A stretch of DNA of 64,000 nt from an uncultured virus (IMG/VR IMGVR_UViG_3300031712_000005) (IMGVR_UViG_3300031712_000005); one strand, 5' to 3'; shown: positions 30,491 to 60,020, counted from the stretch's first letter. The notes: generated by a model from the sequence alone, not told the origin. Made by a program: numbers and translations.

Positions 30491-31164
30491 CTGAGAGAGA
30501 TCCCAACGTCATCCGCCGCCTGCATCTCTTCAATGGTCTTGAGCTTCTCTGTCTTGATGTAGGTGATACGATGGATTGGAGTGACCCCTAGGCGTTTGAT
30601 AGCTTCCTGATGCTCTTTGGTTCCGTATCCTTGATTCTCGTGGAGGTTGTATCCAGGGTACTTCTCGGCCAGCTGCCACATGTAACGGTCGTGTAGTACC
30701 TTGCCAATGATGCTGGCTGCCATCACCGCGGGGACAATGCCATCGGCTTCAGGGAAGTTCAGGTGGTTAACTCCGGGTAGTTTGACTTCACCGTCGAGTA
30801 TGATGAGCGACTCCGGGTACTGGGCGAGGATGGACTGGACCACTTCTCGGTAGCACCGGCGTAAGGACAGCATGACCCCATGACGGTCAATTTCTTCCGA
30901 TTGAGCCATGGCGATTGCATAGGGTACCCTGGACTTCAGCCATCCGAACAGCTCCTCCCTCTTCTTGGGGCGGACCTTCTTCGAGTCATTTAAGTCCTTG
31001 GGCGGTCGCCAATCGTGCTTGACCGCAACCGCGCAAACTATGAGGGGACCAGCCCAGCTACCGTACCCGCACTCGTCGGCCCCTATGATAAATGGCTTGG
31101 TGTGACGAAGTTCTTCGTATTCCGGCGGCGGGGCCTTTGGAGCCTTAGATTTTCTTGCCGCCAT
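30487..31164 (-). CDS. rnhB: ribonuclease HII
   Basis: IGADECGYG, LNDSKK, LDG, AASIIGKV, GYGT..H, PIHR. Confidence 0.92.
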   Translation of the reverse strand: MAARKSKAPKAPPPEYEELRHTKPFIIGADECGYGSWAGPLIVCAVAVKHDWRPPKDLNDSKKVRPKKREELFGWLKSRVPYAIAMAQSEEIDRHGVMLSLRRCYREVVQSILAQYPESLIILDGEVKLPGVNHLNFPEADGIVPAVMAASIIGKVLHDRYMWQLAEKYPGYNLHENQGYGTKEHQEAIKRLGVTPIHRITYIKTEKLKTIEEMQAADDVGISLS

Positions 31165-31702
31165 GACGATAGGGCCTTGTCCGGTTGAAAGCGGTCTTCT
31201 CATCAATGACTGCCCATAGATCTATACCAACGACCTCAGCCATTTGGAAGGAATAAGTCACGGCTACAGCCATCCAGAAAGCCATCCCTAGTACGTGATC
31301 TGACCAAGCTTTGGACAGAGCGTAGTTAATGCGCGCCAACCATTCTTCAAAGTCAGCCTCTGTAAGTGGTTGTGGGCCGTTCTTGACGTAAGTCTCCAGA
31401 TCTATGTTGTACTTTCCGCAGTAGTCAGCTATACGAATTACCAGGTCCGCAAGCTCAACGGGTATTCCGCAAGGCTTGTCACCGGGTGCGCCGATCGTGG
31501 TGTAGTGGCACCCATCAGCTTCGTGGTGCACTTCATACCAGACTTCAGTGAGTCCCTTGTGCTTTCGATACTCTTCTAGGATCTCGGCTACCTCACTCTG
31601 CATGAGCAAGGTGAGAGCTGCAAGAGATCTCTCCTCGTCATGCCACCCATGCTCCATAGCAATCTTGTACGATTCGGTCACTAGATCGTTTAGTCTTCCC
31701 AT
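31145..31702 (-). CDS. MazG-like NTP pyrophosphohydrolase
   Basis: SEVAEILEE, ELADLVIRIAD, EKTAFNRTRPYRHGGK. CGGTGTA on the minus strand 12 nt upstream. Confidence 0.8.
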   Translation of the reverse strand: MGRLNDLVTESYKIAMEHGWHDEERSLAALTLLMQSEVAEILEEYRKHKGLTEVWYEVHHEADGCHYTTIGAPGDKPCGIPVELADLVIRIADYCGKYNIDLETYVKNGPQPLTEADFEEWLARINYALSKAWSDHVLGMAFWMAVAVTYSFQMAEVVGIDLWAVIDEKTAFNRTRPYRHGGKKI

Positions 31703-37032: not shown

Positions 37033-38028
37033 ATGTCGCTCTCTCTCGAAGACCTTAACAACGTTCACACAATCCTAGTTCACAAGAACTGCCCTGACGG
37101 TACTGCTTCAGGTATGATCCTGAAGCATGCTCTCAATCGTCCTGTTGTGTTCCTCCAGTATGGAACAAACGAGTATACTAACCTCCAAGCTATCCCTGGG
37201 ATGTTGTTCTGTGACGCCACTCCTCCACATGATAGAGTTCAGGAGTTCGTCGACGCTGGAGCCATTGTTCTAGACCATCACAAGGGGGCTCAGGATGTTG
37301 TTGCTAAGTTCGGGGAGCATGGGGTGTTCGCGGACGAGAAGGTAGAACCTGGAGTCTGTGGGGCAGTCCTAGCCTATCGAGAGGTATGGGTTCCGCTACT
37401 TGGCCCAATGGGCGAAGTAGCTGACTTCGCCCTTGTGGCTGGTATCCGAGACACCTGGCAGACTAAGAGCCCGCGTTGGGCTGAATCCTGTGCCCAAGCT
37501 TCTTGGGTGATGTTCTTCGGAGAAGAGGAGTGCCTGAAGGCTCCAATCTTTGGGGACCTCGACCGATGGAAGTTCCGCCAGAGTGTCGGGGACATGCTGT
37601 TTGCTGAGCACATGCGCAAGATCACGAAAGCGGTTGGTGGTTCATTTCGAACCAGTATCAATGGTCTCAGAGTGGCTATCCTCCAGGGGGCATCCAATTC
37701 AAGTGACGCGGCCGAGATGTTCGGTGAGGCATCTGAGGTAGACGTTGTCGTCGGATTCAGTTACTACAATGAAGTAGACCCTGATCGGGAGCAATGGTCA
37801 ACAGAGTTCAGCAAAGGCCTGAAGTTGGTCTGTTCTTGTCGAAGTCGTACAGCCTTCGATGTCTCTAAATTGGCTAAGTTCTATGGGGGTGGTGGGCACA
37901 CAAAGGCTGCCGGATTTACCACTCAAGTAGAGGAGGGACACTACAACCCCTACTTGAAGATCCTAGAACTCATTGACAACTACGTGGTTGCTAATCAGCG
38001 CAATCTTCCAGCTGACCTCAGAGGTTAG
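37033..38028 (+). CDS. DHH/DHHA1 phosphoesterase
   Basis: HKNCPDG, LDHH, GGGGHTKAAGF. CGGTGTA (37017) 9 nt upstream. Confidence 0.9.
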   Translation: MSLSLEDLNNVHTILVHKNCPDGTASGMILKHALNRPVVFLQYGTNEYTNLQAIPGMLFCDATPPHDRVQEFVDAGAIVLDHHKGAQDVVAKFGEHGVFADEKVEPGVCGAVLAYREVWVPLLGPMGEVADFALVAGIRDTWQTKSPRWAESCAQASWVMFFGEEECLKAPIFGDLDRWKFRQSVGDMLFAEHMRKITKAVGGSFRTSINGLRVAILQGASNSSDAAEMFGEASEVDVVVGFSYYNEVDPDREQWSTEFSKGLKLVCSCRSRTAFDVSKLAKFYGGGGHTKAAGFTTQVEEGHYNPYLKILELIDNYVVANQRNLPADLRG

Positions 38029-40044: not shown

Positions 40045-40656
40045 AATTCAGTCATGTCGTAGTAGCCCTCTTGTTCTCGTTCCTTGGGGCATTATTTGTC
40101 GCGTGTGGTCCGCAGCAACAGAGCAGTGACGAAATCACAAGTAAGCGTCAAGAAACGCTTCTCATGCAGGGCGTCGAGAAGATCGGGATGCCCGGGATCA
40201 AGAACTTCCGTGAGTTGCGGATGTCGAATCGGATCCTAGAGGAACGAGATCAAACACATGACTTGGACTTACCTGTGGAGTGACTACCACCGGTGCTTCA
40301 CATTCATTGAGACTTCGGTGGCATATCCAATGCCCTATGCCACCCAACGAACAAGTCCACAGAAGATCGTTAAACGGGCTACTGATCATTGGCTTGCCAT
40401 GCCTCAAGCTGATCCCAATGGGCTCTACTCACCGGCGGACGCTGAGGGAACTTTCGTGGAGATGAACAACCCCACCAAGGTGAATCAGACTGGGTTGGTC
40501 TACAGTGAGCCTAGGATCTCAACCTTCCCTTACGAGCTTCCCCAGCGCCTTGTCTGTCCAGATCTGGTCAGACCTGAACCAATTAGTACCACGCTCAAGA
40601 CAGCCCCAAAGACCCCCGTGGTCTTGTCAGCACCCAAGAGAGAACCAGCTGATTGA
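40041..40656 (+). pseudogene. phage lipoprotein split by a +1 frameshift near 40255
   Basis: Lipobox FVAC and GMP.I.NF.E...RDQ in 40041..40283. TWTY...PYATQ..PQ...PQADPNGLYSP..AEGT in 40258..40656. Confidence 0.65.
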
Positions 40657-41747
40657 CTCCCTTCAAGTTTGAATACTCTGGTAACCTCACCTGGTTACCA
40701 GAGTCCATCATTTACTTCACCCGCCATGGGTCGCATGCTTACGGGACCGCACTCCCCGAGAGTGATATGGATATCCGAGGGGTGTGTATTGCCCCTCAGC
40801 GGTATCACTTGGGTTTTGAGCGCTTTGATGAGCTTGAGCAAAAGGTACCGGACCTGAAGATCTTCGAGTTGAGGAAGTTCTTCCTGCTGGCTATCGACAA
40901 TAACCCTAATGTGATTGAGTTGCTTTATACGGAGCCGGAGGACCACTTGCTGGTAACCCCGCTCGGTCAAAAGTTACTCGACAACAGAGACTTGTTCTTG
41001 AGCAAGCGTAGTCGATCTTCCTTCAGCGGCTACGCAATGCAGCAAATGAAGAGGATCAACACCCACTACAAGTGGTTGAGGGATCCACCAAAGGCCCCAC
41101 CCACTCGAACAGAGTTTGGACTCCCTACTCGAGATGAGGTTCCAGCCAACCAACTTCAGGCTGCCAAAGCAGCTGTCCAGAAGCAGGTTGATGAGTGGGA
41201 GTGGCGAAAGCTCGAAGGGGTGGATCCTTCGACTAGGATCGACATCAAGAACGAGTTCTTCCGTCGGCTCTTGGATATCACCCTGTGGAATTGGGATGAG
41301 GCCCACGACAAGCTCTATCCAGCGGCTGCCAACAAGTTGGGTTTTGACACCAACTTCATCCTATTGCTGGAGAAGGAGCGTCATTATACGAATGCCCTCA
41401 ACAACTGGAATGCCTACCTTGAGTGGCAGAAAACTCGTAACCCAGCTCGGGCTGAACTCGAGGCTAAATACGGGTACGACACCAAGCATTGCATGCACCT
41501 TGTTAGGTTATTCCGGATTTGTAGGGAGATCCTGACTGAAGGAGTAGTCCGTGTTCGACGTCCTGATGCGGCTGAGTTACTAGAGATCCGTCACGGTAAG
41601 TATGAGTATCCAGAGGTAGTGAAGATGTCAGTTGACATGGATCGCGAGATGCAAGAGCTAGCCAAGAAATCAACTCTTCCTCTATCAGCAGACAGGAAGA
41701 AGATCGATGCTCTATTTCAGGAGATGCTATTAACCTCTTGGGGTTGA
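40653..41747 (+). CDS. Pol-beta superfamily nucleotidyltransferase (YcgL/RlaP-like)
   Basis: GSHAYG...SDMDIRGV, NNPNVIELL, GYDTKHCMHLVRL. Confidence 0.85.
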   Translation: MTPFKFEYSGNLTWLPESIIYFTRHGSHAYGTALPESDMDIRGVCIAPQRYHLGFERFDELEQKVPDLKIFELRKFFLLAIDNNPNVIELLYTEPEDHLLVTPLGQKLLDNRDLFLSKRSRSSFSGYAMQQMKRINTHYKWLRDPPKAPPTRTEFGLPTRDEVPANQLQAAKAAVQKQVDEWEWRKLEGVDPSTRIDIKNEFFRRLLDITLWNWDEAHDKLYPAAANKLGFDTNFILLLEKERHYTNALNNWNAYLEWQKTRNPARAELEAKYGYDTKHCMHLVRLFRICREILTEGVVRVRRPDAAELLEIRHGKYEYPEVVKMSVDMDREMQELAKKSTLPLSADRKKIDALFQEMLLTSWG

Positions 41748-41790: not shown

Positions 41791-42372
41791 GTGGGTCTTC
41801 TTGAAGAACGCCTAGCTAAACTCTGGATGACAGGGTTCCGGAAGAGTATTCCTCCTGGAGGATCCCCGAGATCTGCTTGGGCTCACCCCCAAGACTTGGT
41901 TCGAGTCATCCAAGAAGAGTTCGTGGTCTGCAAGCCTGAGGCTCAGGTTACCGACTACCTCATTCGATTTGCTTGGATTCACGACATCCTAGAAGATGGC
42001 TACCTGCGCGGGGGGACTCTTGTAACTGAAGAGGACCTCCTATTCCAGGGTGTTGATGCTCAGATCGTTATGGACGTGGTAGATATCTCTCGAAGTACGA
42101 CCGAGAGCAAGGATGCTTATCTAGCGCGCCTTATCAATTCCACTCCACGAGTCAAGTTGCTCAAGTGCATTGACAGAACCTGCAACCTACGAGAGTCCCC
42201 AAAGCATGATCATGCCTGGTGGGACCGGTACTCCGCCAGCACGCGCAAGTACATTCTGCCCTTGGCTAGCAGCCTACCCACCTCCAAAGGGTGGAACTCT
42301 TGGGCCACCGGTATCCTTGAGCATGCACTGACACTGAGACCATCTCGAAGGTTCAATCAAGTTACGCTCTAG
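41791..42372 (+). CDS. HD-domain hydrolase (Mesh1/SpoT-hydrolase-like)
   Basis: HP..., WIHDILED, KCIDRTCNL. TTGATC-N16-CATAAT upstream. Confidence 0.75.
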   Translation: MGLLEERLAKLWMTGFRKSIPPGGSPRSAWAHPQDLVRVIQEEFVVCKPEAQVTDYLIRFAWIHDILEDGYLRGGTLVTEEDLLFQGVDAQIVMDVVDISRSTTESKDAYLARLINSTPRVKLLKCIDRTCNLRESPKHDHAWWDRYSASTRKYILPLASSLPTSKGWNSWATGILEHALTLRPSRRFNQVTL

Positions 42373-47493: not shown

Positions 47494-48648
47494 ATGTCGA
47501 ACCAGGTATGGAAGTCAGGTCTCAAGGTTGTCTACGCCAAAGAGGAATTGCCCACTGAGATCGTGAAGAGCATCTTCCTAGCTGGTCCAACCCCACGGGA
47601 GTTGGTTGTACCCAGTTGGCGCCCTGAAGCTCTCGAACTCCTAGAAAAGCTTGGTTACGACGGACACGTGTTCGTCCCAGAACCCCGTGACGGTAAGTTC
47701 TCGGGGGACTACGTCGACCAGGTTGAGTGGGAAACCAGCGCACTCAATCAGGCCGACATCATCGTCTTCTGGGTCCCCAGGGACATGAAGACCTTGCCGG
47801 CCCTGACTACCAACATCGAGTGGGGTCTTTGGGCTGACACCGGGAAGTGTGTCCTTGGTACTCCCACTGGAGCGGAGCATGTCCGCTACCTTCAGTGGAT
47901 GGCTGCCAAAATGAAGGTGCCCAACTACAGTACATTGGAGGCTACACTTCAGGAAGCCATTGAGCGGATTGGTGATGGTGCTCTCCGTAAAGGGGGTGAC
48001 ACTCAAGTGCCCCTTCATGTCTGGACACACCCAACCTTCCAAGAGTGGTTGGTTGCCCAGAAGAGCGTTGGAAACCACCTTGATAGTGCCAAGGTTCTCT
48101 GGACATTTAGAGTTGGTAGACAGCTTGATAAGGTTTTCTCATGGTGTTTGCACGCCAACGTTTGGGTTGAATCAGAGAAGAGGTTCAAGTCGAACGAGTA
48201 CGTGTTGGGCAGGACCGATTTTGTCTCATGTGTCATGCATCGAGATAACCAGATTGTCCTTGTTCGTGAATTCCGGAGCCCAGTGAGGAATGAGGCTGGG
48301 TTCGTATACGAGCTTCCCGGGGGTTCGTCTCACAATGCGGGTGAGGACCAGCAATCTGTGATCGCCCATGAGATTGAGGAAGAGACTGGTCTGAAAATTG
48401 ATCCTAAGCGCTTTCAACTATGTGAGACTAGGCAACAGATGGCGACGTTCGCAGCTCAGTCTGCAACCTTGTTCTCGGTTAGGCTGAGTGAAGAGGAGCT
48501 AGGTAAATTAAAGGCAGATGCTGGGAACGTACATGGAGTCTTAGAAGATACTGAGCGAACCTTTGTCGAAGTGTGGGACATTGATGGTATCAAAGACTCT
48601 CGACTTGTGGACTGGGTTACCCTCGGGATGATCCTTACCGTGGTGTAA
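47494..48648 (+). CDS. nucleoside 2-deoxyribosyltransferase-like + NUDIX hydrolase fusion
   Basis: IFLAGPT, SWR, QVEWE, TTNIEWG. Nudix box ELPGG...HEIEEETGL. CGGTGTA (47477) 10 nt upstream. Confidence 0.85.
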   Translation: MSNQVWKSGLKVVYAKEELPTEIVKSIFLAGPTPRELVVPSWRPEALELLEKLGYDGHVFVPEPRDGKFSGDYVDQVEWETSALNQADIIVFWVPRDMKTLPALTTNIEWGLWADTGKCVLGTPTGAEHVRYLQWMAAKMKVPNYSTLEATLQEAIERIGDGALRKGGDTQVPLHVWTHPTFQEWLVAQKSVGNHLDSAKVLWTFRVGRQLDKVFSWCLHANVWVESEKRFKSNEYVLGRTDFVSCVMHRDNQIVLVREFRSPVRNEAGFVYELPGGSSHNAGEDQQSVIAHEIEEETGLKIDPKRFQLCETRQQMATFAAQSATLFSVRLSEEELGKLKADAGNVHGVLEDTERTFVEVWDIDGIKDSRLVDWVTLGMILTVV

Positions 48649-48660
48649 CTCCGAGGCGCC

Positions 48661-48694
48661 AACCCCAATATACTACTTGTGGTGTATTGGGGTT
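48661..48694 (+). promoter_or_regulatory. 15-bp RNA hairpin (CUUG loop) containing the TGGTGTA element, abutting ATG 48695
   Basis: AACCCCAATATACTA-CTTG-TGGTGTATTGGGGTT, with two G-U pairs. Confidence 0.75.
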
Positions 48695-50047
48695 ATGACC
48701 CACAGGAAGAACTCAACTCGACCGATTGAGGTGTACGGAATCTCAGGGGGAAAGGGGCACGGTAAGGATACCTTCTGTGGCCTAATTCTGAAGCATAGCG
48801 CCGATTGGTACACCCAACGCAAGTGGGAAGTCCAGAGTCAAACCTTCAAGGTTTTGCACTTTGCTGATGACCTGAAGAGGATGGCTTCCAAGATCTTCGG
48901 TATACCTCTTGAGTCATTCATTGATCCTGACAAGAAGGAAGTTCGGTTCGAAGCCCCTATCGATTTAGACCTGTTTGTTAGTGCAATGCAAAGCGAGACT
49001 GGTCTGAGTATTGAAAAACATGAATTGATGGCTTGTAGTCCACGTGAGGTGATGCAGAGATTTGGAACCGAATACGTTAGGGGGGCGCAAGATGATTACT
49101 GGGTAAGTCTTACTCTTGGTAAGATCGGTAAGTCAAAGAGAGTTCTAATCCCTGACACTCGTTTCGTGAACGAGCTTCAAGGCGTTATGAGTGTAGGTGG
49201 GCGCATAATTGAGGTAGTACGGGTTGATGTTCATAAAGAGCCTGATAATCACTCCTCAGAAACTGAACGGTCTAAGTTCAATCCAGACTTAGTCGTTGGG
49301 GTCCGCACAGGTGATCTATCACTACCAAACAGGGTAGCTAGGCTAATAGCTACTGGTAAGTTTCAATCAGCACTACGGTATGACTATCGTAGTGCTCAGA
49401 AAGCCATATCCGAGTATCAAAGTGGTAAGAGCTTAGAAGAGAGTGCTAGGCTTCTAGGTGAAAACCACAAAGACCCCTACTGCTTGCGGAATATTTTGGA
49501 GTACTACGGGGTGCCAATCAGGAAGAAAGATCCTAAGAGGATTGGTCATAAGGTGGTTGAGGGTGTGCCGCACAAGTGGTGCAGCTTCTGTACCACTTGG
49601 CTACCACTTGGTGAGTTCAACTACAACTCGAAGAGTTGGGATAGCCTAGCTGGGTTATGTCGAACTTGTGCATCAGATCTGAACAAGGGTCGTTATCTGA
49701 AGCACACCAGAAGAGACACAATAGCTAGGGTCCTACAGGCTAGTAAAAGTTCTGCAAGTTACCGAGATATACCCTTCAGCCTGAACCTAGAAGCAATTCA
49801 AGCTACTTGGGACAAGCAAGAGGGTAGATGCTTCTACAGCGGCCAAGCCCTGACTTTTGAGCCAGGGTCCCCTCACAAGGCAACCCTAGACAGGGTTGAT
49901 TCAACTCTGGGGTATACCCCAGAGAACGTGGTGTTTTGCTCATATACCGTCAACATGATGAAGAGGAGCTTAACCTTGAATGAATTTGGGGTTATTGTTC
50001 GGGAATTAGCTTCTAGGTCAGATTCATGGCCAAGTAGCCTGGGTTAG
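48695..50047 (+). CDS. deoxynucleoside monophosphate kinase fused to Zn-finger/HNH-like endonuclease
   Basis: GGKGHGKDT, FADDLK, PREVMQRFGTE, DTRFVNE. C-terminal CSFC..CRTC, CFYSG..TLDRVDS..GY...NVV.C...NMMK. Confidence 0.85.
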   Translation: MTHRKNSTRPIEVYGISGGKGHGKDTFCGLILKHSADWYTQRKWEVQSQTFKVLHFADDLKRMASKIFGIPLESFIDPDKKEVRFEAPIDLDLFVSAMQSETGLSIEKHELMACSPREVMQRFGTEYVRGAQDDYWVSLTLGKIGKSKRVLIPDTRFVNELQGVMSVGGRIIEVVRVDVHKEPDNHSSETERSKFNPDLVVGVRTGDLSLPNRVARLIATGKFQSALRYDYRSAQKAISEYQSGKSLEESARLLGENHKDPYCLRNILEYYGVPIRKKDPKRIGHKVVEGVPHKWCSFCTTWLPLGEFNYNSKSWDSLAGLCRTCASDLNKGRYLKHTRRDTIARVLQASKSSASYRDIPFSLNLEAIQATWDKQEGRCFYSGQALTFEPGSPHKATLDRVDSTLGYTPENVVFCSYTVNMMKRSLTLNEFGVIVRELASRSDSWPSSLG

Positions 50048-51285: not shown

Positions 51286-51326
51286 AGGAACTACGCGTAT
51301 TCGGTAATCAACAGTGGGTGGTTGAT

Positions 51327-51391
51327 TTAGTGTAGACTTGACACTGAGTTGGTGTATAACCGACATCGACAAGGTGTCATGCTGACACTAA
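51327..51391. promoter_or_regulatory. three tandem NrtR operators (GT-N7-AC palindromes, 22-bp period)
   Basis: TTAGTGT-agacttg-ACACTGA (51327), TTGGTGT-ataaccg-ACATCGA (51349), AAGGTGT-catgctg-ACACTAA (51371). Confidence 0.85.
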
Positions 51392-51420
51392 CGAGCCGAG
51401 TGGTTCACATACGGTTCCCC

Positions 51421-52173
51421 ATGCTAATACAGAAGAAAAAGGCAAAAGTCACTCGAAAACTTCGATACCACTACGAGTTCCCGATGGCGGCACTCACAGT
51501 AGATGGGGTTGTCTTTGGATTTGACCCAAAGGATGAGGACAACCCTCTGAAAGTCCTGATGATTCGTCGAGGGGAGGAGCCATTTACAGGTCTTTGGGCA
51601 TTCCCCGGCGGGCACGTGAACATCATCAGTGATGAGGGTTTGGAGGATGCCATTCGGCGAGAGGTTCGAGAGGAGACCAAGGCCGAGTTCGAGTACCTCG
51701 AACAGCTAGGAACCTTTGCTGACCCTCACCGAGACCCACGAGGGAGGTATGTCACTGTCGCCTACTTTGCTCTCGTTAGAAAGGATGAGCACGACACCAT
51801 CGAGGGCTGTGACGATGCTGACCGAGCCGAGTGGATTCCTATCCGGAAGCTGACCCGGATGAAGCTCGCCTTCGACCACAACAAGATTCTGGACTACGCG
51901 ATCAAGCGACTTCAAGCCAAGGTCCGGTGGGCTCCACTTGGGTTCGAGCTACTCCCGAGAGCCTTCACCATTGGGCAGCTTCAGCAGCTCTACGAGGCAA
52001 TCCTGCAAAGGCCCCTCGATAAGCGGAACTTCCGACGCAAGATCACCTCGATGGGGATTCTTACCGAAGCGGGTAAGGCCAAGTCGAGAGTTGGACCGAC
52101 CGCACGATTATACCGCTTTGACACCAAGGCATACGAGAAAGCCGTTGAAAAAGGCTTCAACTTTGAGTTATGA
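51421..52173 (+). CDS. nrtR: NrtR Nudix-related transcriptional regulator
   Basis: LTVDGV, WAFPGG, REVREET, LEQLGTF...RDPRGR, LAFDH, wHTH region FT...LQ.LYE...DKRNFRRKI. Confidence 0.92.
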   Translation: MLIQKKKAKVTRKLRYHYEFPMAALTVDGVVFGFDPKDEDNPLKVLMIRRGEEPFTGLWAFPGGHVNIISDEGLEDAIRREVREETKAEFEYLEQLGTFADPHRDPRGRYVTVAYFALVRKDEHDTIEGCDDADRAEWIPIRKLTRMKLAFDHNKILDYAIKRLQAKVRWAPLGFELLPRAFTIGQLQQLYEAILQRPLDKRNFRRKITSMGILTEAGKAKSRVGPTARLYRFDTKAYEKAVEKGFNFEL

Positions 52174-52182
52174 GAGGACACC

Positions 52183-53589
52183 ATGCGAATCAATCCAATA
52201 CTTTTAGTAGATAGCTACAAGAGCACGCACCCTCCGCAGTATCCTCCGGGGACTGCCTCGATGTTTGATCACTTGGAGTCGCGTGGTGGTCAGTTCGGCA
52301 CCACCATCTACTTTGGCCAGCAATTCATCAACAAGGAGTACTTGAGCATCCCGATCACCCACGCTCATGTTGATGAAGCCAAGGACTTCTTCATTAGCCA
52401 CTTCGGGACGGATGACCCAGACTACTTTCCCGAGATGGGTTTTCGTAAGATGGTGGATAATGGTGGGTTCTGGCCGGTACGGATCAAGACGGTAGCGGAA
52501 GGGACTGAAGTTCATACCAGGAATATGCTTCTGTCCTTGGAGAGTACCGGTGGGCCCGAGACCTTTTGGGCTGCAAGCTGGTTGGAGACTCAAATTGTCC
52601 GCAATTGGTACCCAACCACGGTAGCAACACTCAGCTACTACTGCAAGAAGATCATCCTCGAAGCCCTGATGGAGAGCGCCAACGACCCTTGGTCGGAGAT
52701 CTACTACAAGCTCCATGACTTCGGCGGCCGTGGCGCTACTTGTCACGAGGCGGCTGGTATCGGCGGCATGTCCCACCTCATCAACTTCCGTGGCTCGGAT
52801 ACCGTGGAAGGGATCATGTTTGCTCGTGACTACTACGGAGAGAAGATGGCTGCTAATTCGATTGCAGCCGCTGAGCACTCCAGTATCACCTCGTGGACTC
52901 GTGAGCGTGAGCTACTTGCCTATCGGAACATGGTCAAGAAGTTCTGCAAGCCTGGTCGAGTCGTGGCCTGCGTCTCGGACAGTTACGATATCTACAACGC
53001 TATCGAGAACATGTGGTGTGGTGAATTACTTGAAGAGGTCAAGACCTCTGGTGGTTGTATCGTTATTCGCCCTGATTCAGGTGATCCACCCTCGGTAGTG
53101 TTGAAGTGCTTGCAAACTCTCGAACGCAAGCTTGGGATGAAAAAGAACCTGCGAGGGTACAAGATCCTCCCGGACTACTTCCGGCTCATCCAAGGTGATG
53201 GCATCAATATTGACTCATTGGCTGAGATACTGAGAGTCATTCTCTTGAATGGTTACTCGGCATCGAACCTCGCCTTCGGCATGGGCGGCGGCCTTTTGCA
53301 GTTGGTGAATCGAGACACCCAGAAGTTTGCTCTCAAGTGTTCTGAGATCACCACTACGGCCGGAGAAGTCATCCCCGTATACAAGGACCCGGTCACTGAC
53401 CCTGGGAAGACCTCGAAGAAGGGTAAGTTGGACCTTATCTTTGAAGATGGTCAATTCAAGTCAGTACCCTTCGGAACTGCCAAGAATAACAGTCGAATGA
53501 TAACTGTCTACGAGGACGGTAAGATTACCAACGACTTTTCGTTCTCAGAGCTACGAACAAATTCCGAAAAGAACCTGCCAAGAGTGTAA
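52183..53589 (+). CDS. nadV: nicotinamide phosphoribosyltransferase (NAMPT/NadV)
   Basis: DSYK..H, LHDFGGRG, AAEHS, VSDSYD, IRPDSGDP, IQGDG, FGMGGGLLQ.VNRDT. Confidence 0.92.
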   Translation: MRINPILLVDSYKSTHPPQYPPGTASMFDHLESRGGQFGTTIYFGQQFINKEYLSIPITHAHVDEAKDFFISHFGTDDPDYFPEMGFRKMVDNGGFWPVRIKTVAEGTEVHTRNMLLSLESTGGPETFWAASWLETQIVRNWYPTTVATLSYYCKKIILEALMESANDPWSEIYYKLHDFGGRGATCHEAAGIGGMSHLINFRGSDTVEGIMFARDYYGEKMAANSIAAAEHSSITSWTRERELLAYRNMVKKFCKPGRVVACVSDSYDIYNAIENMWCGELLEEVKTSGGCIVIRPDSGDPPSVVLKCLQTLERKLGMKKNLRGYKILPDYFRLIQGDGINIDSLAEILRVILLNGYSASNLAFGMGGGLLQLVNRDTQKFALKCSEITTTAGEVIPVYKDPVTDPGKTSKKGKLDLIFEDGQFKSVPFGTAKNNSRMITVYEDGKITNDFSFSELRTNSEKNLPRV

Positions 53590-53592
53590 GTA

Positions 53593-53781
53593 ATGGGTTC
53601 GATGGGTTACTCTCGTGAGTATTATGAACGAGCCGCGGATCGTCTAAACCGGCGCTCTCGGCAGGAAAACCCTACATCACCAAGTAGGGGGTCAAGTACT
53701 CCGACGTCAATCCAGCCTGAAAGTCAACCAAAAAAGAAGAAATGGTGGCCCGATAGGTATCACAGGCCTTGGGTCATCTAA
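53593..53781 (+). CDS. small basic protein whose N-terminus resembles the next gene's N-terminus
   Basis: 62 aa, MGSMGYSREYY. Confidence 0.45.
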   Translation: MGSMGYSREYYERAADRLNRRSRQENPTSPSRGSSTPTSIQPESQPKKKKWWPDRYHRPWVI

Positions 53782-53799
53782 AGAAAGAAGAGGCCCGCC

Positions 53800-54765
53800 A
53801 TGGGTGGTGGAAGTTGGAGTGAAGAATACTACAACGATAAGGCGAAGGAGCGCGCTACAAGCGGTAAGTCTGCTTTTGCCCATCACGAAGCAGTCATTGC
53901 CAAGCCGAAGAGTGAGCAGAAGGTTCACCCCCGGCTTGATCCAAAAGGAGTCAAGGTTCGGGAGTCAAGAGATTCGCTAGAGCATCCTGAATCGATCCCC
54001 ATTTCCATCATGCTCGATGTCACTGGGTCGATGCAAAAAGTACCCATTGGAGTTCAAAAAAGCCTTCCGAATATGAATAAAATAGCCCTCAAGGTAGGGA
54101 TACGCGATGCTCACTTTTTGTTTGGAGCTATCGGGGACGAATTCTCCGACAAGGGATCGTTGCAAGTCGGTCAGTTCGAAGCCAGTAATCAGATGGATGA
54201 GGATCTGGAGCACTTCTGGTTGGAGGGCAATGGTGGACCTTACGGGGAAGAATCGTACCAGAACGTCTTCTATTTTTTCGCACGTCATACAGAGATTGAC
54301 TCTCTCATCAAGCGCAACAAGAAGGGTTACCTTTTTATCCTAGGAGATGAACTACCGTTCCCTGTCGTGAAGAGCTCGTCAATCGATAGTATTCTTGGGT
54401 ACAACCTGCAAGGGGTTGATATCAAGACTGAGGATATCGTTCGTGAGTGTCAGCAGAAGTACAACGTATTCTTTGTCATTCCAAGGGATACTAGCGGTGG
54501 AGATAAGTCAAGTGTAGCGCACTACTGGGAAAGGTTGCTTGGTGCCCAGAATGTCATCCACATGGCAAATGCTACTGACATCTGCGAATTGGTAGCTACT
54601 ACGGTGGGTATCTGTGAAGGATTGACCAACATTCAAGATGCCAAGATACTACTCAGAGATGCTGGGGTTAGTTCCTCAAAATCTTCGAGTATAGAGGCAT
54701 CTCTCTACAACCTGATCAAGAGTCGTGGGTTGCCAGTTGGCAGCTCACCGGTTCGAAGACTGTAA
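53800..54765 (+). CDS. vWA-domain protein
   Basis: MGGGSWS, RESRDS.EHP, DVTGSM, LQVGQFE, LEGNGG...ESY, KGYLFILGDE. Confidence 0.85.
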   Translation: MGGGSWSEEYYNDKAKERATSGKSAFAHHEAVIAKPKSEQKVHPRLDPKGVKVRESRDSLEHPESIPISIMLDVTGSMQKVPIGVQKSLPNMNKIALKVGIRDAHFLFGAIGDEFSDKGSLQVGQFEASNQMDEDLEHFWLEGNGGPYGEESYQNVFYFFARHTEIDSLIKRNKKGYLFILGDELPFPVVKSSSIDSILGYNLQGVDIKTEDIVRECQQKYNVFFVIPRDTSGGDKSSVAHYWERLLGAQNVIHMANATDICELVATTVGICEGLTNIQDAKILLRDAGVSSSKSSSIEASLYNLIKSRGLPVGSSPVRRL

Positions 54766-54777
54766 CTATCAAAGGAG

Positions 54778-56151
54778 GTGGTGGCTGATCTCAGCCACCA
54801 CCTAGAAACTATGATGAGAGCTGTATTGGTAGCTGGCCTTGGGTTCGGGGATGAGGGTAAGGGCTCGATTGTCGACTACCTGTGTCGTAAGCACAAGTCC
54901 AAGGTGGTCGTCAGGTACAATGGGGGCGCGCAAGCTGGGCATAACGTTGTCCTAGCCGACGGAAGACACCATTGCTTTTCTCAGTGGGGTTCTGGGACTT
55001 TTGCTGGTGCCAAGACTTACCTCAGCAAGTATGTGTTGGTGAACCCTACCTTCATGTTACCCGAGGGGGATCACCTGATCAGCCTTGGGGTGACTGACGC
55101 CTTCGAGCGGATGTTCGTCGACCAAAACTCTCTCCTGACCACTCCTTTTCACGTGTCTCTCAACCGCCTTCGAGAGACTCAGCGTCGAGTGAAGTCCACG
55201 TTGGAGTTTGGTACTTGCGGAATGGGTATAGGTGAGACAGTCGATTGGGCCATCCGTGATCCAGAGTTGGCTATTCGAATGCGCGACCTCAACAACTTAG
55301 ATGAGTTGGCCAGTAAACTCAGAGGTATACGGATCAGAGCTTGCTTGGAAGCTAGAACTCTAGTTAGTGATTGGCCCAAGGGTAGTGAGGTTGGGGTTGA
55401 TCTCGATATCCTAGAAGACGGTGAGGTTGTAGATCGCTTCATCCAAGATACAACCGAGCTCTTGAAACGAGGGGTGTCTATTGTTAGGCCTATTGATACT
55501 GGGGATGTCTTCAACGATGATGACACTATAATCTTTGAAGGGGCTCAGGGAGCATTGCTTGATGAAGAGTGGGGTTTTCATCCGCACACGACTTGGAGCA
55601 ATTGCACCTTTGAGAATGCCATCAAGATTCTCAAGCAGATATCAGGTACCTCAGGTGCTAAATACCTCAGACTTGGAGTGACTCGTCCGTATCATACTCG
55701 TCATGGAGCGGGACCACTACCTTCTGAGGGTCTCGAGTTGGACATCAAGGACCACAATGTCGATGGGGAGTGGCAGGGATCCTTCCGATTAGGTTACTTC
55801 GACTTCATAATGGCGAGGTACGCCAAGTTTGTTATGGATGGTGTGGATGCAATAGCAATCAATCATCTTGACCAAGTGAGCGGACCCCAACAGGTTTGTT
55901 TAGCCCATAACTTCCTAGGCAGTACTACGTACCGTATAAGGTTTGGGATTAGTCACGACTTCCATCTCGAGCTCAAGGCCATGTCAGAGAAGTATGGGGA
56001 GGAGGCAGAGCCTGTTCAATCGGCGGTATCCCCAGTCTACACAACCCTTAGTGGCACACGACGTCTAGAAGCCTGTATATCGAAGGTATTCAAATCTCGG
56101 GTACTCATCAGGGGTTTTGGTCCAACAGCAGAGGATAAGCGTGAAGTATGA
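54778..56151 (+). CDS. divergent adenylosuccinate synthetase-like protein
   Basis: GFGDEGKG, GGAQAGH, CGMGIG, FEGAQG.LLD, TRHGAGP. Likely start 54811. Confidence 0.85.
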   Translation: MVADLSHHLETMMRAVLVAGLGFGDEGKGSIVDYLCRKHKSKVVVRYNGGAQAGHNVVLADGRHHCFSQWGSGTFAGAKTYLSKYVLVNPTFMLPEGDHLISLGVTDAFERMFVDQNSLLTTPFHVSLNRLRETQRRVKSTLEFGTCGMGIGETVDWAIRDPELAIRMRDLNNLDELASKLRGIRIRACLEARTLVSDWPKGSEVGVDLDILEDGEVVDRFIQDTTELLKRGVSIVRPIDTGDVFNDDDTIIFEGAQGALLDEEWGFHPHTTWSNCTFENAIKILKQISGTSGAKYLRLGVTRPYHTRHGAGPLPSEGLELDIKDHNVDGEWQGSFRLGYFDFIMARYAKFVMDGVDAIAINHLDQVSGPQQVCLAHNFLGSTTYRIRFGISHDFHLELKAMSEKYGEEAEPVQSAVSPVYTTLSGTRRLEACISKVFKSRVLIRGFGPTAEDKREV

Positions 56152-57053
56152 CCCAGATTAACTTGAGAGACGGCCGAGAGTTGATCATCCGAGCCAAGGT
56201 CATAGAAGGAGATATCAGCGAGATCTTTGAGGGGACGTTGTCCAATCCACCCGCGGTAGTTGAACACAAGGAGATTCGAACCCGCTACGAGCGCATCATG
56301 GATCGAGAGTCTGGGCACAACTCCAAGCCTGTTTTGGTGAAGATCGCTAAGGACCGAGAATTCAATGATCTGATTGAGAGGGACGTGTCAGTACTTGGTC
56401 AGCTGCACCCTGAAAACCCCAGTGAGCCAAGCAGCTTCCACAAGTACTACCCCACGAGTTATGGTGGGATCGGAGTCCTTGTTGATGGTAAGCAAGCCCA
56501 CATCTTCGAGGAGATCAAGGGTTGTGTAACTCTTGATACTGTTCTCAAGGCCTACCCGAAGGGGATTGACTATCGGGACATGGCTTGGATGTTCAAGCGG
56601 TCCCTTGTGGGCATGTGGTATGCCCACAAGCACAAGGTTATCCACGGAGCGATCTTGCCTCCACACATCCTACTCACCCTGGAAGATCACGGGGGGCGGA
56701 TAGTCGATTGGTCCTACTCGACTCCAACAAGGATCAAAGTTCCGGCAATGGTCACCACCTACGAGGACTTCTACCCACCCGAAGTCCTTCACTCGGAGCC
56801 CGCGCGGGAGGGTACCGATCTCTATATGATGGCCAAGTGCGTTCAAGCACTACTTGGTGGAGACCTAAAAACCAAGGAGTATCCGGATTCGGTCCCAGAG
56901 CCTATAAGGGACCTACTCGGACTCTGCCTAAATGAAAATGTCAATATGAGGCCTATTGACGCGAGTGAGGTTCATGATACCTTCGATAGGTTGCTGAAGG
57001 AAGTAGTAGGGAAACCTAAATTCCGCCCTTTTACACTGCCAGAGTTTATATGA
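56148..57053 (+). CDS. protein kinase-fold protein (probable pseudokinase)
   Basis: VLVK, IHGAILPPH (HRD absent), DWS, PPE, DLYM. Confidence 0.8.
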   Translation: MTQINLRDGRELIIRAKVIEGDISEIFEGTLSNPPAVVEHKEIRTRYERIMDRESGHNSKPVLVKIAKDREFNDLIERDVSVLGQLHPENPSEPSSFHKYYPTSYGGIGVLVDGKQAHIFEEIKGCVTLDTVLKAYPKGIDYRDMAWMFKRSLVGMWYAHKHKVIHGAILPPHILLTLEDHGGRIVDWSYSTPTRIKVPAMVTTYEDFYPPEVLHSEPAREGTDLYMMAKCVQALLGGDLKTKEYPDSVPEPIRDLLGLCLNENVNMRPIDASEVHDTFDRLLKEVVGKPKFRPFTLPEFI

Positions 57054-58189
57054 TAATCCCAAGTGGTCATGCATTACGTGAAGCCCTGAAGGTACTACTA
57101 ACGAAGGATGTACGATTGGGGATCTTGGGCGCCAGCGCTGGTTCAGGAATGGTGGCAGGTCTTGCCACCATTCCTGGCCTAACTAATGTGCTTCATGAGG
57201 CACACTTCCCGCACGCCAAGGAAGCTACCAGTGACTATCTCGGGTTCGTCCCCGAGAACTTCGTCTGCATGGATACCGCGTTGGAGCAAGCCATGAGGGC
57301 CTATTACCGAGCCTACCAGCCCGATGGGAAGCGGACGATTGGGATTGGGGCTACGGCCGCGATAGCCACGAACGAGATCCACAGAGGCGAGCACAGGGTC
57401 TGGGTGGGGGTTTTCTCGGATGACCTAGTCTGTGTCTACTATGCCAGGTTCAAGAAGGGGGTGGGAGAAGAGGTTCGATTCAAAGATCTTCTAGCCTGTG
57501 ATATGCTGATTGGGAAGGCCATACTACAAGCAGTTGGGGCCACAGACATCATTACTCTTCCTGATAACGTTGAGTTTGAGGATTGTATCACTGATTGCAA
57601 CACTCAAGCGAAGATTCTACTGAGCAAGAGACCATTCTTCCGGAGTGACGGTGCGCGACTCGGCTGGGATAGCATGATGCACGACTTCGAGGCATCGGGT
57701 GTTGGCGTCTACCCCGGGTCGTTCACCGTCCCTCATTTTGGACACTTTGGGGTTGCCGATGCTTTCACCAAGCAGTACCACCAGCCGGTGGTTTTCGCTA
57801 TCGAGGTGAGCCCACCTCACAAGGATCTGTTGACCCCTTGGGATATGCTGAAGCGAGCCAAGCTGCTCAAAGGGCGACACGTGATCTTCACTTGGGGCGC
57901 CCCGTATTACTTGGACAAGGCTAGGCTATTCCCGAATACTAAGATCATTCTTGGAGCCGACGCCTTCGTTGAACTCTTGGATGCCAAGTGGGGGTTCAGT
58001 GTTGACGCCCTTCAACGAGTGTTCAAGGAGACCGGGACCAAGCTCATCGTTCCGGATCGGTTGGTGAAGGGTGTATTCACCACGCTTTGGGACTTGAGGC
58101 CTCCGAGTAACTTCCCCTGCGAGAGGCTTCCGGTCAGGTTTGACATCAGCTCGACTGAGCTGATTAGATCCGGCAATATCTGGTCCTAG
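57050..58189 (+). CDS. CinA/PncC-like + HxGH nucleotidyltransferase (NMNAT-like) fusion
   Basis: N-terminal GAS.GSG...LATIPG. C-terminal YPGSF..PHFGH, GAD, ISSTELIR. Confidence 0.8.
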   Translation: MIIPSGHALREALKVLLTKDVRLGILGASAGSGMVAGLATIPGLTNVLHEAHFPHAKEATSDYLGFVPENFVCMDTALEQAMRAYYRAYQPDGKRTIGIGATAAIATNEIHRGEHRVWVGVFSDDLVCVYYARFKKGVGEEVRFKDLLACDMLIGKAILQAVGATDIITLPDNVEFEDCITDCNTQAKILLSKRPFFRSDGARLGWDSMMHDFEASGVGVYPGSFTVPHFGHFGVADAFTKQYHQPVVFAIEVSPPHKDLLTPWDMLKRAKLLKGRHVIFTWGAPYYLDKARLFPNTKIILGADAFVELLDAKWGFSVDALQRVFKETGTKLIVPDRLVKGVFTTLWDLRPPSNFPCERLPVRFDISSTELIRSGNIWS

Positions 58190-58217: not shown

Positions 58218-60020
58218 ATGGAAAAATTCGAACCCAAAATTCTACTCGGGGATAATAAAAATAGCCTTGCTGAACTTGAGCCAAATTCGGTCGACTTGAT
58301 CTACTTGGATCCGCCTTATGGTAGCGGTAGAAAGTACAATCAGACTGTGCATAGTGGTAATGGTAGTCACGCGCAGATCTTGGCCTACCCTGATACCTGG
58401 AAACTTGATGTCGGGACTGACAATGATTTGGAGGCCCTTCTTGATAGTAGGCTAATCTCAGATTACCCACTGCTTAAGAAGTATCTTATTGGTAACCAAG
58501 AGGTAGTAAGTCAATACAACCCTAAGTTTTGGTCCTACCAAGTCTACATGGCTGTTAGGTTGGCGTTGGCGCACAGAGTTCTCAAAGAAAACGGGATGTT
58601 GTGTTACGAGTGCGACCCTAATGCATCCCCATTTGTACAATCTCTTCTAGGTCCGATTTTTCACACACCGTTGTATAAGGGATCCTGGGTATCAACGGTC
58701 ACTTGGAAACGCACTTTTGCGCATAACGACTCAAAAACCCTAGGTTCTGTTGTAGATGTATTGTTGTTCTATGCTAAAGGCCCTAACTACAAGTGGAATC
58801 GAGTACTCCAACCGCAGGCTGGCCTAGAAAAGGTCTATAAACATAGAGATCCTGACGGTAGATGGTGGCAATCAGTTACTCTAACCGGGTATGGAACCTC
58901 CGGTGGTAATAGTGGCAAACCTTGGAGAGGGATAGATCCATCATTAAGTGGGAAAGGCCGTCACTGGAACGTACCTGACCGAGCTAAGTGGTACTTCAAA
59001 GAGAAGTACCATAAGGATCTGACGGGTACCACCCAAGAGATGCTGGATATATTGGACGCTGAGGGTTTGATCTTCTGGTCACCTAAGGGTGGAGTTCCTA
59101 GATACAAACACTTCTTGACCATTAACTCCGGAGTTCCGATCAGTAACTATTGGACTGATCTTACGACACTTGAGGCTTCCAGGGACGATCTTGAGTACTA
59201 CCGAGGGGATATTCTACCCCTTAATACCCCAGCAGATGAAGCCTGGGAGGATATCAACCTAGGTAAGAGTGAGTCAATAACTTTTGATGGCCAGAAGCCG
59301 CTGAAGTTAGTCCAGCGTGTAATTTTAGGCTGTACTGACCCTGGTGACTTGGTAGTGGACCCATTTGTCGGTAGCGGTACCACTTGCATAGCGGCTTACC
59401 AGTTAGGCAGAAAGTCAATCGGGATGGAGTTGTCCCCAGAGACCTTCCGTGAAGCGCGCTTACGCTTGGAAAGGGAAAAAGTGATCATCACCCAAAGGGT
59501 GACCCATGTTACTGATGCTTCTTGCCTCTATGAGCTGGATGGTTACGGATGGTCAGAGTTCGTAGTTAAAAACGTGTTCAATGCTGAGTACACTGATGGT
59601 CCTAACGACCACGGTCAGGATGGGTACTTCACTACAATAGCCCCAAACAACAAGCACCTAACGGTAGCTATTCAGGCAAAAAGCGGTAAAAGTGCTAAGG
59701 AGGTCAAGACCGGAATCTATGACCTCGATGAGGCTTTGAAGTACTGGCATAGAGACCAAGGTATTCTAGTAGCCTATCGGAAGTTTATTCAACCTGATCA
59801 CTACAGAATGGCGAGAGATCGTGGGGACGTTCCTGGGCATCCGGGATATCCTAAAATTCAGATCATAGCTATAGAGCGCCATTGGGAAGATAATGCACCC
59901 TTGTTGGGGGCGAAGGTTTACCCACCTTCGGACCACCCGATTGAGTTCTATACTAGGTTAGAAGAACAGAATATGGAGTTCGAGAGACAAAACGCAATGT
60001 TTGCTCTAGAATCAGAGTAA
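58218..60020 (+). CDS. N6A/N4C DNA methyltransferase (beta class) with C-terminal Mrr-like PD-(D/E)XK domain
   Basis: LDPPY, QKP, DPFVGSGTT. C-terminal D.GQDG...IQAK. Confidence 0.85.
   Translation: MEKFEPKILLGDNKNSLAELEPNSVDLIYLDPPYGSGRKYNQTVHSGNGSHAQILAYPDTWKLDVGTDNDLEALLDSRLISDYPLLKKYLIGNQEVVSQYNPKFWSYQVYMAVRLALAHRVLKENGMLCYECDPNASPFVQSLLGPIFHTPLYKGSWVSTVTWKRTFAHNDSKTLGSVVDVLLFYAKGPNYKWNRVLQPQAGLEKVYKHRDPDGRWWQSVTLTGYGTSGGNSGKPWRGIDPSLSGKGRHWNVPDRAKWYFKEKYHKDLTGTTQEMLDILDAEGLIFWSPKGGVPRYKHFLTINSGVPISNYWTDLTTLEASRDDLEYYRGDILPLNTPADEAWEDINLGKSESITFDGQKPLKLVQRVILGCTDPGDLVVDPFVGSGTTCIAAYQLGRKSIGMELSPETFREARLRLEREKVIITQRVTHVTDASCLYELDGYGWSEFVVKNVFNAEYTDGPNDHGQDGYFTTIAPNNKHLTVAIQAKSGKSAKEVKTGIYDLDEALKYWHRDQGILVAYRKFIQPDHYRMARDRGDVPGHPGYPKIQIIAIERHWEDNAPLLGAKVYPPSDHPIEFYTRLEEQNMEFERQNAMFALESE

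Follow-up and report, generated by a model that had tools for sequence, protein, structure and literature searches.

Depletion of nicotinamide adenine dinucleotide (NAD+) is a major bacterial strategy against phages, and, to our knowledge, the known phage answers NARP1, NARP2 and NARP3 are all plain NAD+ synthesis routes. In NARP2, the enzymes Nampt and Nmnat overcome NAD-depleting defences, and this pathway is present in ~1.1% of sequenced phages (bioRxiv 10.1101/2024.02.11.579819). Regulators of the NrtR type recognize DNA motifs most of which are 21-bp palindromes with the core GT-N7-AC, and ADP-ribose suppresses the binding of NrtR to DNA in vitro (PMC2330246). Phages also carry relatives of adenylosuccinate synthetase (PurA): of 481 phage PF00709 homologues counted in one survey, 147 are PurZ, and the rest are not discussed further in that paper (PMC12884076). 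Here, we describe a locus in which elements of all three systems meet. It lies in a stretch of 64,000 nucleotides from an uncultured virus (IMG/VR IMGVR_UViG_3300031712_000005), which we refer to as the window, and consists of an nrtR-like gene followed by six further open reading frames (ORFs).

We propose, with a probability of roughly 0.55, the following reading of this NrtR-headed giant-phage operon. A nicotinamide phosphoribosyltransferase (NAMPT) and a CinA-like/NadD-like adenylyltransferase, which together are predicted to regenerate NAD+ from nicotinamide, enclose a module composed of a vWA-fold protein, a PurA-like enzyme and a pseudokinase. This module likely carries out a GTP-driven reaction with a pair of substrates that differs from inosine monophosphate (IMP) and aspartate. 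The NAD+ pair is a variant of the known NARP2 logic; the embedded trio matches no described system.

The PurA-like enzyme and its two partners

The PurA-like product matches PF00709 at 5.3e-56 (Pfam), and its best sequence matches are PurA chains from the PDB. It reaches 159.5 bits with the PurA equivalog model NF002223 (cut-off 402) and 38.7 bits with the PurZ model NF038379 (cut-off 300; both NCBIfam), and it falls in phrog_1211, a PHROG with a PurZ-style label. Homologues begin at the methionine encoded at 54811. An alignment was made of 125 members of this family, E. coli PurA and five PurAs with a housekeeping role. The catalytic residues Asp13 and His41 and the P-loop residue Lys16 are retained in all 125 members, as are Gln224 in 122, Asp333 in 123 and Thr239 in 119. 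The three residues that we take to be the IMP 5'-phosphate ligands of PurA are all replaced: Asn38 has become Gln (124/125), Thr129 has become Cys (114/125), and the position of Arg143 most commonly holds Asp, Glu, Gly or Ala, with Arg never among these four commonest residues. Val273 is an invariant His (125/125). The ligands of L-aspartate are lost as well, since Thr301 is Gln in 120 members, Arg303 is deleted in all 125, and Arg305 is exchanged for a hydrophobic residue (Phe, Leu, Met or Trp). The stretch from Arg303 to Arg305 has been described as the putative L-aspartate site of PurA, with Arg303 also contacting the ribose O2', and PurZ keeps an Asp-contacting Thr loop (PMC8342488). In addition, Asp13 is changed to Ser in 100% of phage PurZ (PMC12884076).

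An assignment as canonical PurA was rejected on the lost ligands and on the score of 159.5 against 402 bits, and an assignment as PurZ on the universal retention of Asp13 and on the score of 38.7 against 300 bits. Judged by its residue pattern, the predicted family is a third, uncharacterised branch beside PurA and PurZ. It likely keeps the GTP-dependent phosphoryl-transfer half-reaction with both substrate pockets changed. At least one bacterial locus, L100, contains beside the module another PurA-type match with a low family score (167 bits), which we take to be the housekeeping PurA.

The protein encoded directly upstream of the PurA-like enzyme has no Pfam match, and the Pfam VWA profile recognizes 1 of 55 members of its family. 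Its AlphaFold2 (AF2) model, with a mean confidence (pLDDT) of 93, finds integrin beta I-like domains, the SpaC adhesin and NorD vWA domains as best Foldseek matches. The vWA fold is accompanied by a metal-ion-dependent adhesion site (MIDAS; DxSxS...T...D), here with the motif D-V-T-G-S and the residues D73, T75, S77 and D183. Throughout the family no variation is seen at Gly2, D73, T75, G76 and D183, and at least 90% of members keep S77. The family comprises 2,658 representative clusters at E <= 0.001. Among the 150 best representatives, 139 start with Met-Gly, and for most of the remaining 11 the start seems to have been called wrongly; matches nearly always begin at residue 1. A search for fused forms of this protein returned one generic multi-vWA protein only. 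One representative (P0284, 581 aa) matches in two stretches.

The kinase-like product barely exceeds the Pkinase threshold (32.2 bits, cut-off 31.7) and carries H-G-A in place of the catalytic H-R-D. Among 61 family members, the position of the catalytic Asp is occupied by Ala in 45 and by Asp in 5, and that of the catalytic-loop Asn by His in 40 and by Asn in 9. The marks of the C-lobe of eukaryotic-type protein kinases are retained, and the HRD Asp and the Asn of an active kinase are absent from the window protein. This pattern is that of a predicted pseudokinase.

Distribution of the module and its links to NAD genes

A profile scan of IMG/VR found 117 relatives among 166 candidate stretches, of which the best 80 loci, mostly on contigs of 100-437 kb, were kept. 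Together with the phages Sebata, pv27 and TM30 they make up 83 phage loci, over whose ORFs we ran iterated hidden Markov models (HMMs). A parallel scan of bacteria with one genome per species provided 80 loci, 74 of them with members of the PurA-like family. ORF calls are crude in the high-GC loci. In 81 of the 83 phage loci a vWA gene is present, and it is always 5' of, adjacent to and co-oriented with the PurA-like gene; in the two exceptions (L040 and L053), the sequence available on the 5' side is shorter than 1 kb. A kinase-like gene was found in 67. Searches with tblastn located all three genes in 201 Mycobacterium phage records of Bixzunavirus (Bxz1) type. Sebata has the gene order kinase, vWA-like, small ORF, PurA-like, and the vWA/PurA-like pair is adjacent also in Vibrio phage pv27 and Rhizobium phage RHph_TM30. 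Clustering of all neighbouring ORFs in the phage loci produced no further recurrent neighbour.

In several Bixzunavirus genomes (Mycobacterium phages Rabinovish, Darko, Sauce, Quasimodo and others) the vWA-like match is divided into two pieces over ~1650 bp, and an HNH endonuclease is annotated beneath the split match. The gene appears to be interrupted there by a mobile endonuclease or an intein-like insert.

The 74 bacterial family loci contain a vWA gene in 65 cases, a kinase gene in 49 and a Nudix/NrtR gene in 23. Hosts include Variovorax, Myxococcus, Nocardia, Amycolatopsis, Saccharothrix, Hymenobacter and many metagenome-assembled genomes. The annotated flanks consist of housekeeping rather than phage genes, such as those for enolase, RNase R, SmpB, PBP, sigma-70, RecQ and a tRNA synthetase. 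Within one bacterial class, 301 genomes were sampled, and 13 of them carry the vWA-like gene. As a conserved module of phages and bacterial chromosomes, the trio is no local oddity. In three Myxococcus loci (L094, L098 and L110) a second vWA-like paralogue lies directly 3' of the PurA-like gene, and the order is kinase, vWA, PurA-like, vWA.

Linkage of the trio to NAD genes in other genomes had been set beforehand, by the initial annotation of this DNA, as one of the observations on which its reading should stand or fall, and such linkage is present. NAMPT lies within 8 kb of the module in 11 of the 83 phage loci, and ORFs recognized by the NrtR HMM (Nudix) adjoin it in 15 of the 83 phage and 25 of the 80 bacterial loci. 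The NrtR wing domain was detected in 8 of 13 such phage ORFs that were scanned and in 2 of 3 bacterial ones. A complete NrtR (Nudix plus NrtR_WHD) sits directly 5' of the trio, without NAMPT, in the phage loci L006/L007, in the distant phage loci L082/L083 and in the bacterial loci L108 and L153. In yet another locus (L075, 5298-10336) an NMN adenylyltransferase (NMNAT; NMN, nicotinamide mononucleotide) of the NadM-Nudix type and a NAMPT enclose the vWA/PurA-like pair. The pair is thus again associated with NAD salvage, here through an NMNAT of a non-homologous type. On a tree of the PurA-like family from a quick IQ-TREE run, the deep branches of which are weak, the NAMPT-adjacent state requires at least 3-4 changes. 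Linkage of the module to NAD genes is recurrent but not obligatory.

The initial annotation further suggested that the trio may form an additional counter-defence arm. As a phage-specific function this is not supported, since the same module resides in ordinary bacterial chromosomes. Among five large phage records that carry the pair and were searched for NAMPT-family genes, four (Sebata, pv27, TM30 and a record of 224 kb with terminal repeats) lack such a gene.

NAD+ enzymes, regulator and layout of the operon

The NAMPT matches NAPRTase (1.3e-45) and NAMPT_N (1.3e-17) in Pfam, phrog_448 with 428 bits and NCBIfam NF006629 with 513 bits, above the cut-off of 405. By family match, rather than by a tree that would separate the Nampt and Namat clades, it is a phosphoribosyltransferase of the NARP2 Nampt type. 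The last gene of the operon encodes a fusion protein of 379 aa whose AF2 model (pLDDT 92.9) is matched by Foldseek to both NadD and CinA structures. The C-terminal half contains the NadD motifs PHFGH, PPHK and ISSTELIR, from which we infer the activity of an NMN adenylyltransferase; the N-terminal half is CinA/PncC-like. Within the fusion family, CTP_transf_like is detected in 34 of 38 members and Pfam CinA in 16. The fusion itself is rare, with 1 occurrence in 50,697 GenBank phage records (an uncultured 485-kb phage), and among the 83 phage loci the full-length form is found in 3 and the CinA-like part alone in a fourth (L061).

CinA/PncC-type NMN deamidases use a Ser/Lys dyad (S31/K63 in AtCinA, S29/K61 in E. 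coli). In an alignment with E. coli PncC, the position of the catalytic Lys61 is Lys in none of the 38 fusion-family members, and Ser29 gives way to Thr in 28 and to Ala in 7 (among them the window protein) and is kept in 1. The fold is present, and the domain keeps the phosphate-binding Gly and Ser/Thr as well as, in most members, a Tyr. Because the Lys is missing in 38/38 members, the Ser is replaced, and the S31A and K63A mutants of AtCinA are inactive (PMC5384747), the CinA-like domain is likely a dead deamidase that holds NMN for the fused transferase. A deamidase route from NMN via nicotinate mononucleotide (NaMN) to nicotinate adenine dinucleotide (NaAD) is unlikely for the same loss of the catalytic Lys. 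The initial annotation had called the products of the trio and of the last gene vWA, pseudokinase and CinA plus HxGH nucleotidyltransferase, and these calls hold in view of the MIDAS and vWA fold, of H-G-A in place of H-R-D, and of the NadD and CinA folds with PHFGH. Its proposal that NAMPT and an HxGH adenylyltransferase together follow the NARP2 logic also agrees with the described pathway (bioRxiv 10.1101/2024.02.11.579819).

The NrtR-like product contains both domains expected of NrtR, NUDIX (1.3e-18) and NrtR_WHD (1.3e-23; Pfam), and scores 168 bits with NCBIfam NF050029, under the cut-off of 400. The ATG at 51421 is a more likely translation start than position 51349, where the longest ORF begins, because comparison with homologues favours the former and the Pfam/NCBIfam match begins at residue 42. 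Sites of the form GTGT-N7-ACAC occur 3 times in the whole window against 1.06 expected, a number reached in 8 of 100 shuffles, and two of the three lie just upstream of the likely start. The same motif is found directly 5' of nrtR homologues in related loci, paired in L006/L007, L015 and L016/L017 and single in L011. The exact palindrome of the window was not found in these loci; the looser GTGT-N7-ACAC form is common to them. With two such sites 5' of nrtR, recurrence in related loci and agreement with the published GT-N7-AC core (PMC2330246), the identification of the regulator as NrtR has gained support. De-repression of the operon by NAD+ breakdown, which the initial annotation had suggested, is a reasonable prediction backed by these operator-like sites, and we infer that host immunity could be the source of such breakdown. 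Immediately 5' of operator 1 lies a perfect 22-bp palindrome, AATCAAC-N8-GTTGATT (51306-51327). It has no second exact copy in the window, where 0.27 matches with at most 2 mismatches are expected by chance.

The layout of the operon had been described as a tightly packed, co-oriented run of seven genes. This description is borne out by the ORF calls in the window, which place all seven genes on the plus strand between 51349 and 58189, with gaps of 9, 3, 18 and 12 bp in operon order followed by two overlaps of 4 bp, and the identities were confirmed gene by gene (Table 1). The start had been given as 51327, where there is no start codon; 51349 is the first position of the longest ORF for nrtR. 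Terminator-like and promoter-like sites within the seven-gene run show no excess over shuffles. The small ORF behind NAMPT has a single homologue among the related loci, in the closest relative (L002).

Table 1. Genes and predicted operators of the NrtR-headed operon (positions in the window)
Feature	Position	Strand	Basis	Remark
Predicted NrtR operator 1, GTGT-N7-ACAC	51330..51344		Motif scan	Overlaps TTGACA hexamer
nrtR-like gene (Nudix effector domain and NrtR winged helix)	51349..52173	+	Longest ORF; Pfam	
Predicted NrtR operator 2, GTGTCA-N3-TGACAC	51374..51388		Motif scan	Perfect 15-bp palindrome
NAMPT/NadV-type nicotinamide phosphoribosyltransferase	52183..53589	+	Pfam, PHROG, NCBIfam	
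62-aa ORF	53593..53781	+	Pfam, PHROG, NCBIfam searched	No family match
vWA-fold protein	53800..54765	+	AF2 model, Foldseek, alignment	MIDAS intact; N-terminal Met-Gly
Remodelled adenylosuccinate-synthetase-fold (PurA-like) enzyme	54778..56151	+	PF00709; residue table	
Protein-kinase-fold predicted pseudokinase	56148..57053	+	Pkinase match; alignment	
CinA/PncC-like and NadD-like fusion	57050..58189	+	Motifs, AF2 model, Foldseek	Predicted NMN adenylyltransferase

Proposed mechanism, alternatives and relation to known systems

The proposed mechanism begins with NrtR, which would repress the operon until ADP-ribose accumulates, for example through cleavage of NAD+ by host NADase immunity. NAMPT would then make NMN, and the fusion protein would capture NMN via its catalytically dead CinA-like domain and adenylylate it to NAD+. 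In the module, the PurA-like enzyme together with its vWA partner would use GTP to phosphorylate the oxo group of a purine-type nucleotide, which would then be passed to an amine other than aspartate. The vWA partner may stand in for the lost dimer-interface contact of Arg143, and the pseudokinase would serve as a nucleotide-binding regulatory or scaffold subunit.

Several observations weigh against this scheme. In 72 of the 83 phage loci a NAMPT is lacking at distances of up to 8 kb, which means that the module can do without phage NAD salvage; the four large records without any NAMPT-family gene point in the same direction. Four bacterial loci with full flanks (L124, L151, L154 and L158) have a PurA-like gene with no vWA gene within the 17 kb examined. 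Inter-protein mutual information between vWA and PurA-like proteins (with average product correction, 103 pairs) reached a top z of 5.6, with no outliers, no clear signal and none at the vWA N-terminus, a result that speaks neither for nor against contact of the two proteins. NadD enzymes usually favour NaMN, and direct use of NMN by the fusion is therefore not assured. At the operator-like sites no sigma-70-type promoter was called, and the TTGACA and TATAAC hexamers found there are separated by just 11 nt. Finally, the translation of the nrtR-like gene retains the REVREE portion of the Nudix box including its glutamates, so that the protein could alternatively be an ADP-ribose hydrolase.

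Other readings of the trio have to be considered against the same evidence. The PurA-like gene might encode an ordinary auxiliary adenylosuccinate synthetase that uses IMP, aspartate and GTP to raise the supply of AMP and ATP for NAD+ resynthesis and replication, with the vWA and kinase proteins as mere regulators. The PF00709 fold, the complete retention of phosphotransfer and GTP residues and the PDB PurA chains as best matches are all as this reading would have it, and the operon neighbours do use up ATP and phosphoribosyl pyrophosphate (PRPP). We nevertheless consider it unlikely in view of the missing L-aspartate ligands, the altered IMP-phosphate ligands (with position 143 acidic or absent), the shortfall against the equivalog cut-off, and the presumed housekeeping PurA that accompanies the module in L100. 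Production of a modified purine, 2-aminoadenine or similar, for phage DNA by a PurZ-type enzyme is very improbable. Asp13 is conserved where phage PurZ has Ser, the PurZ model is missed by a wide gap, and the module also stands beside NrtR in bacterial chromosomes; the PurZ-style label of phrog_1211 would fit this reading, as would a MazG-like pyrophosphatase, an HD phosphohydrolase, a deoxynucleoside monophosphate (dNMP) kinase and a PolA-type polymerase encoded in the window.

The module might also counter deaminase-based immunity such as Kongming or RADAR. The PurA-like enzyme would then remove or re-aminate hypoxanthine nucleotides (dIMP, dITP or ITP) that act as signals or poisons, and NAMPT and NMNAT would repair the NAD+ pool that such systems deplete. 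In Kongming, a phage dNMP kinase and a host deaminase give rise to dITP, which triggers NAD+ depletion (bioRxiv 10.1101/2024.12.20.629578). The window phage has a dNMP kinase 1.3 kb upstream of the operon, homologues of this kinase stand beside the module in L011, L015 and L016/L017, in the last two directly 5' of the PurA-like gene, and are encoded on the other strand in L069/L071, and the altered contacts to the 5'-phosphate and the 2'-OH would suit a deoxy- or polyphosphate substrate. The lost aspartate site speaks against simple re-amination, however, the bacterial chromosomal copies require another rationale, and the Kongming paper names the T5 Dmp phosphatase as sole inhibitor and makes no mention of adenylosuccinate, PurA or PurZ (bioRxiv 10.1101/2024.12.20.629578). 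The chances of this explanation seem slim. Similarly doubtful is the possibility that the phage captured the trio from cells, where it would act in conflict or stress, for instance as an ADP-ribose-triggered defence or abortive system, and that it perhaps serves superinfection exclusion or host takeover rather than metabolism. Its occurrence in both phages and bacteria and its patchy distribution, illustrated by 13 carriers among 301 genomes, are in line with such an origin. Pairings of vWA and kinase proteins occur in conflict systems, and the kinase domain weakly resembles the MkoA, mad6, PglW and PD-T4-6 kinases. This resemblance is a generic kinase-domain similarity; the vWA and PurA-like proteins match no model of PADLOC-DB 2.0.0, the bacterial flanks examined hold housekeeping genes instead of defence islands, and the trio contains no effector-like domain.

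A bolder version of non-IMP, non-aspartate chemistry concerns the nature of the amine. The PurA-like enzyme might use GTP to activate a 6-oxopurine nucleotide and couple it to the alpha-amine of the N-terminal Gly of the vWA protein, which would yield a nucleotide-protein adduct with an N6 linkage, formed on demand once ADP-ribose reports that NAD+ is being destroyed. This idea is allowed because the aspartate pocket is lost with catalytic residues kept, the two genes are obligately paired, and Met-Gly begins 139 of 150 vWA representatives. We regard it as a long shot. If true, nucleotides would be conjugated to proteins in a way not seen before, and this chemistry would stand at the core of the conflict over NAD between phage and host.

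In the preferred reading, the GTP-driven module is likely to act while NAD+ is being destroyed. What sets the locus apart is a three-gene module that lies inside a predicted NAD+ route under a presumed ADP-ribose-sensing repressor and that recurs beside NrtR in many bacteria. The rebuilt PurA-type site, the obligate vWA partner and the dead kinase point to undescribed nucleotide chemistry linked to NAD or ADP-ribose, in cells as well as in giant phages. The module is open to direct testing, as it is present in ~200 Bxz1-type Mycobacterium smegmatis phages and in culturable Variovorax, Myxococcus and actinomycete strains.

The 64,000 nucleotides of the window belong to a large or giant phage. 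The source record has 71,681 bases (CheckV completeness 15), and contigs of 197 kb and 443 kb encode proteins identical to proteins of the window. Further products of the window are DnaB-like and SNF2-type helicases, a PolA-type polymerase, a thymidylate-synthase homologue, methyltransferases, homing endonucleases and an endolysin. A blastn search of the operon against phages returned short NAMPT fragments only, covering at most 4% of the query. A dense group of nucleotide-metabolism genes (20626-21633, 31145-31702 on the minus strand, 37033-38028, 40653-41747 and 41791-42372) comprises the thymidylate-synthase homologue, the MazG-like pyrophosphatase, a DHH phosphoesterase, a nucleotidyltransferase and the HD phosphohydrolase. 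This gene set may indicate modified nucleotide pools or modified DNA. Closer to the operon, on the plus strand, 47494-48648 encodes a nucleoside 2-deoxyribosyltransferase-like domain (PF15891, 6e-14) fused to a NUDIX domain; homologues of this fusion are found a few kb upstream of the module in L002, L005, L006, L007 and L074. The adjacent dNMP kinase (48677-50047, plus strand; phrog_139, 3e-37) has a C-terminal HNH/endonuclease VII-like domain. Downstream of the operon, 58218-60020 (plus strand) codes for a 600-aa N6/N4 DNA methyltransferase in which the Pfam match extends over residues 25-413 against a profile of 221 positions, which indicates a large insertion. A GIY-YIG homing endonuclease (5595-6566, plus strand; phrog_314, 1.6e-45) lies amid replication genes.

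No paper describing the trio was found in the literature; nrtX and nrtY of Rodionov et al. 2008, which are undefined in the text of that paper, may or may not be part of it. Comparison with the described systems can be made component by component. Like PurA (EC 6.3.4.4; PF00709; PDB 1ade, 3hid and 6bs7), the PurA-like family has the fold, the P-loop GDEGKG, Asp13, His41, Gln224 and the guanine-specifying Asp333. Unlike PurA, it replaces N38/T129/R143 and T301/R303/R305, has an invariant His at V273 and travels with a vWA gene. With PurZ and PurZ0 of the 2-aminoadenine pathway of Z-genome phages it shares the nature of a phage-borne PurA paralogue, a presumably altered substrate use and the same PHROG; PurZ has Ser13 and the Asp-contacting Thr loop, whereas the PurA-like family keeps Asp13 and has this loop rebuilt. 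The regulator resembles the NrtR regulons of Rodionov et al. 2008 in its Nudix and winged-helix domains, in tandem palindromes with a GT-N7-AC core and in nadV as target, and it differs from them in that it is phage-encoded and that its predicted regulon takes in the uncharacterised trio (PMC2330246). Finally, the operon has in common with NARP2 of the Vibrio phage KVP40 type that a NadV-type NAMPT and a predicted NMN adenylyltransferase are encoded close together in a phage, with an expected conversion of nicotinamide and PRPP to NMN and on to NAD+. In contrast to KVP40 Nmnat, which we take to be of the NadM-Nudix type, the adenylyltransferase of the window is a CinA-like/NadD-like fusion of a different family, and in contrast to NARP2 the operon begins with an NrtR gene of its own, preceded by operator-like sites, and embeds three extra genes.

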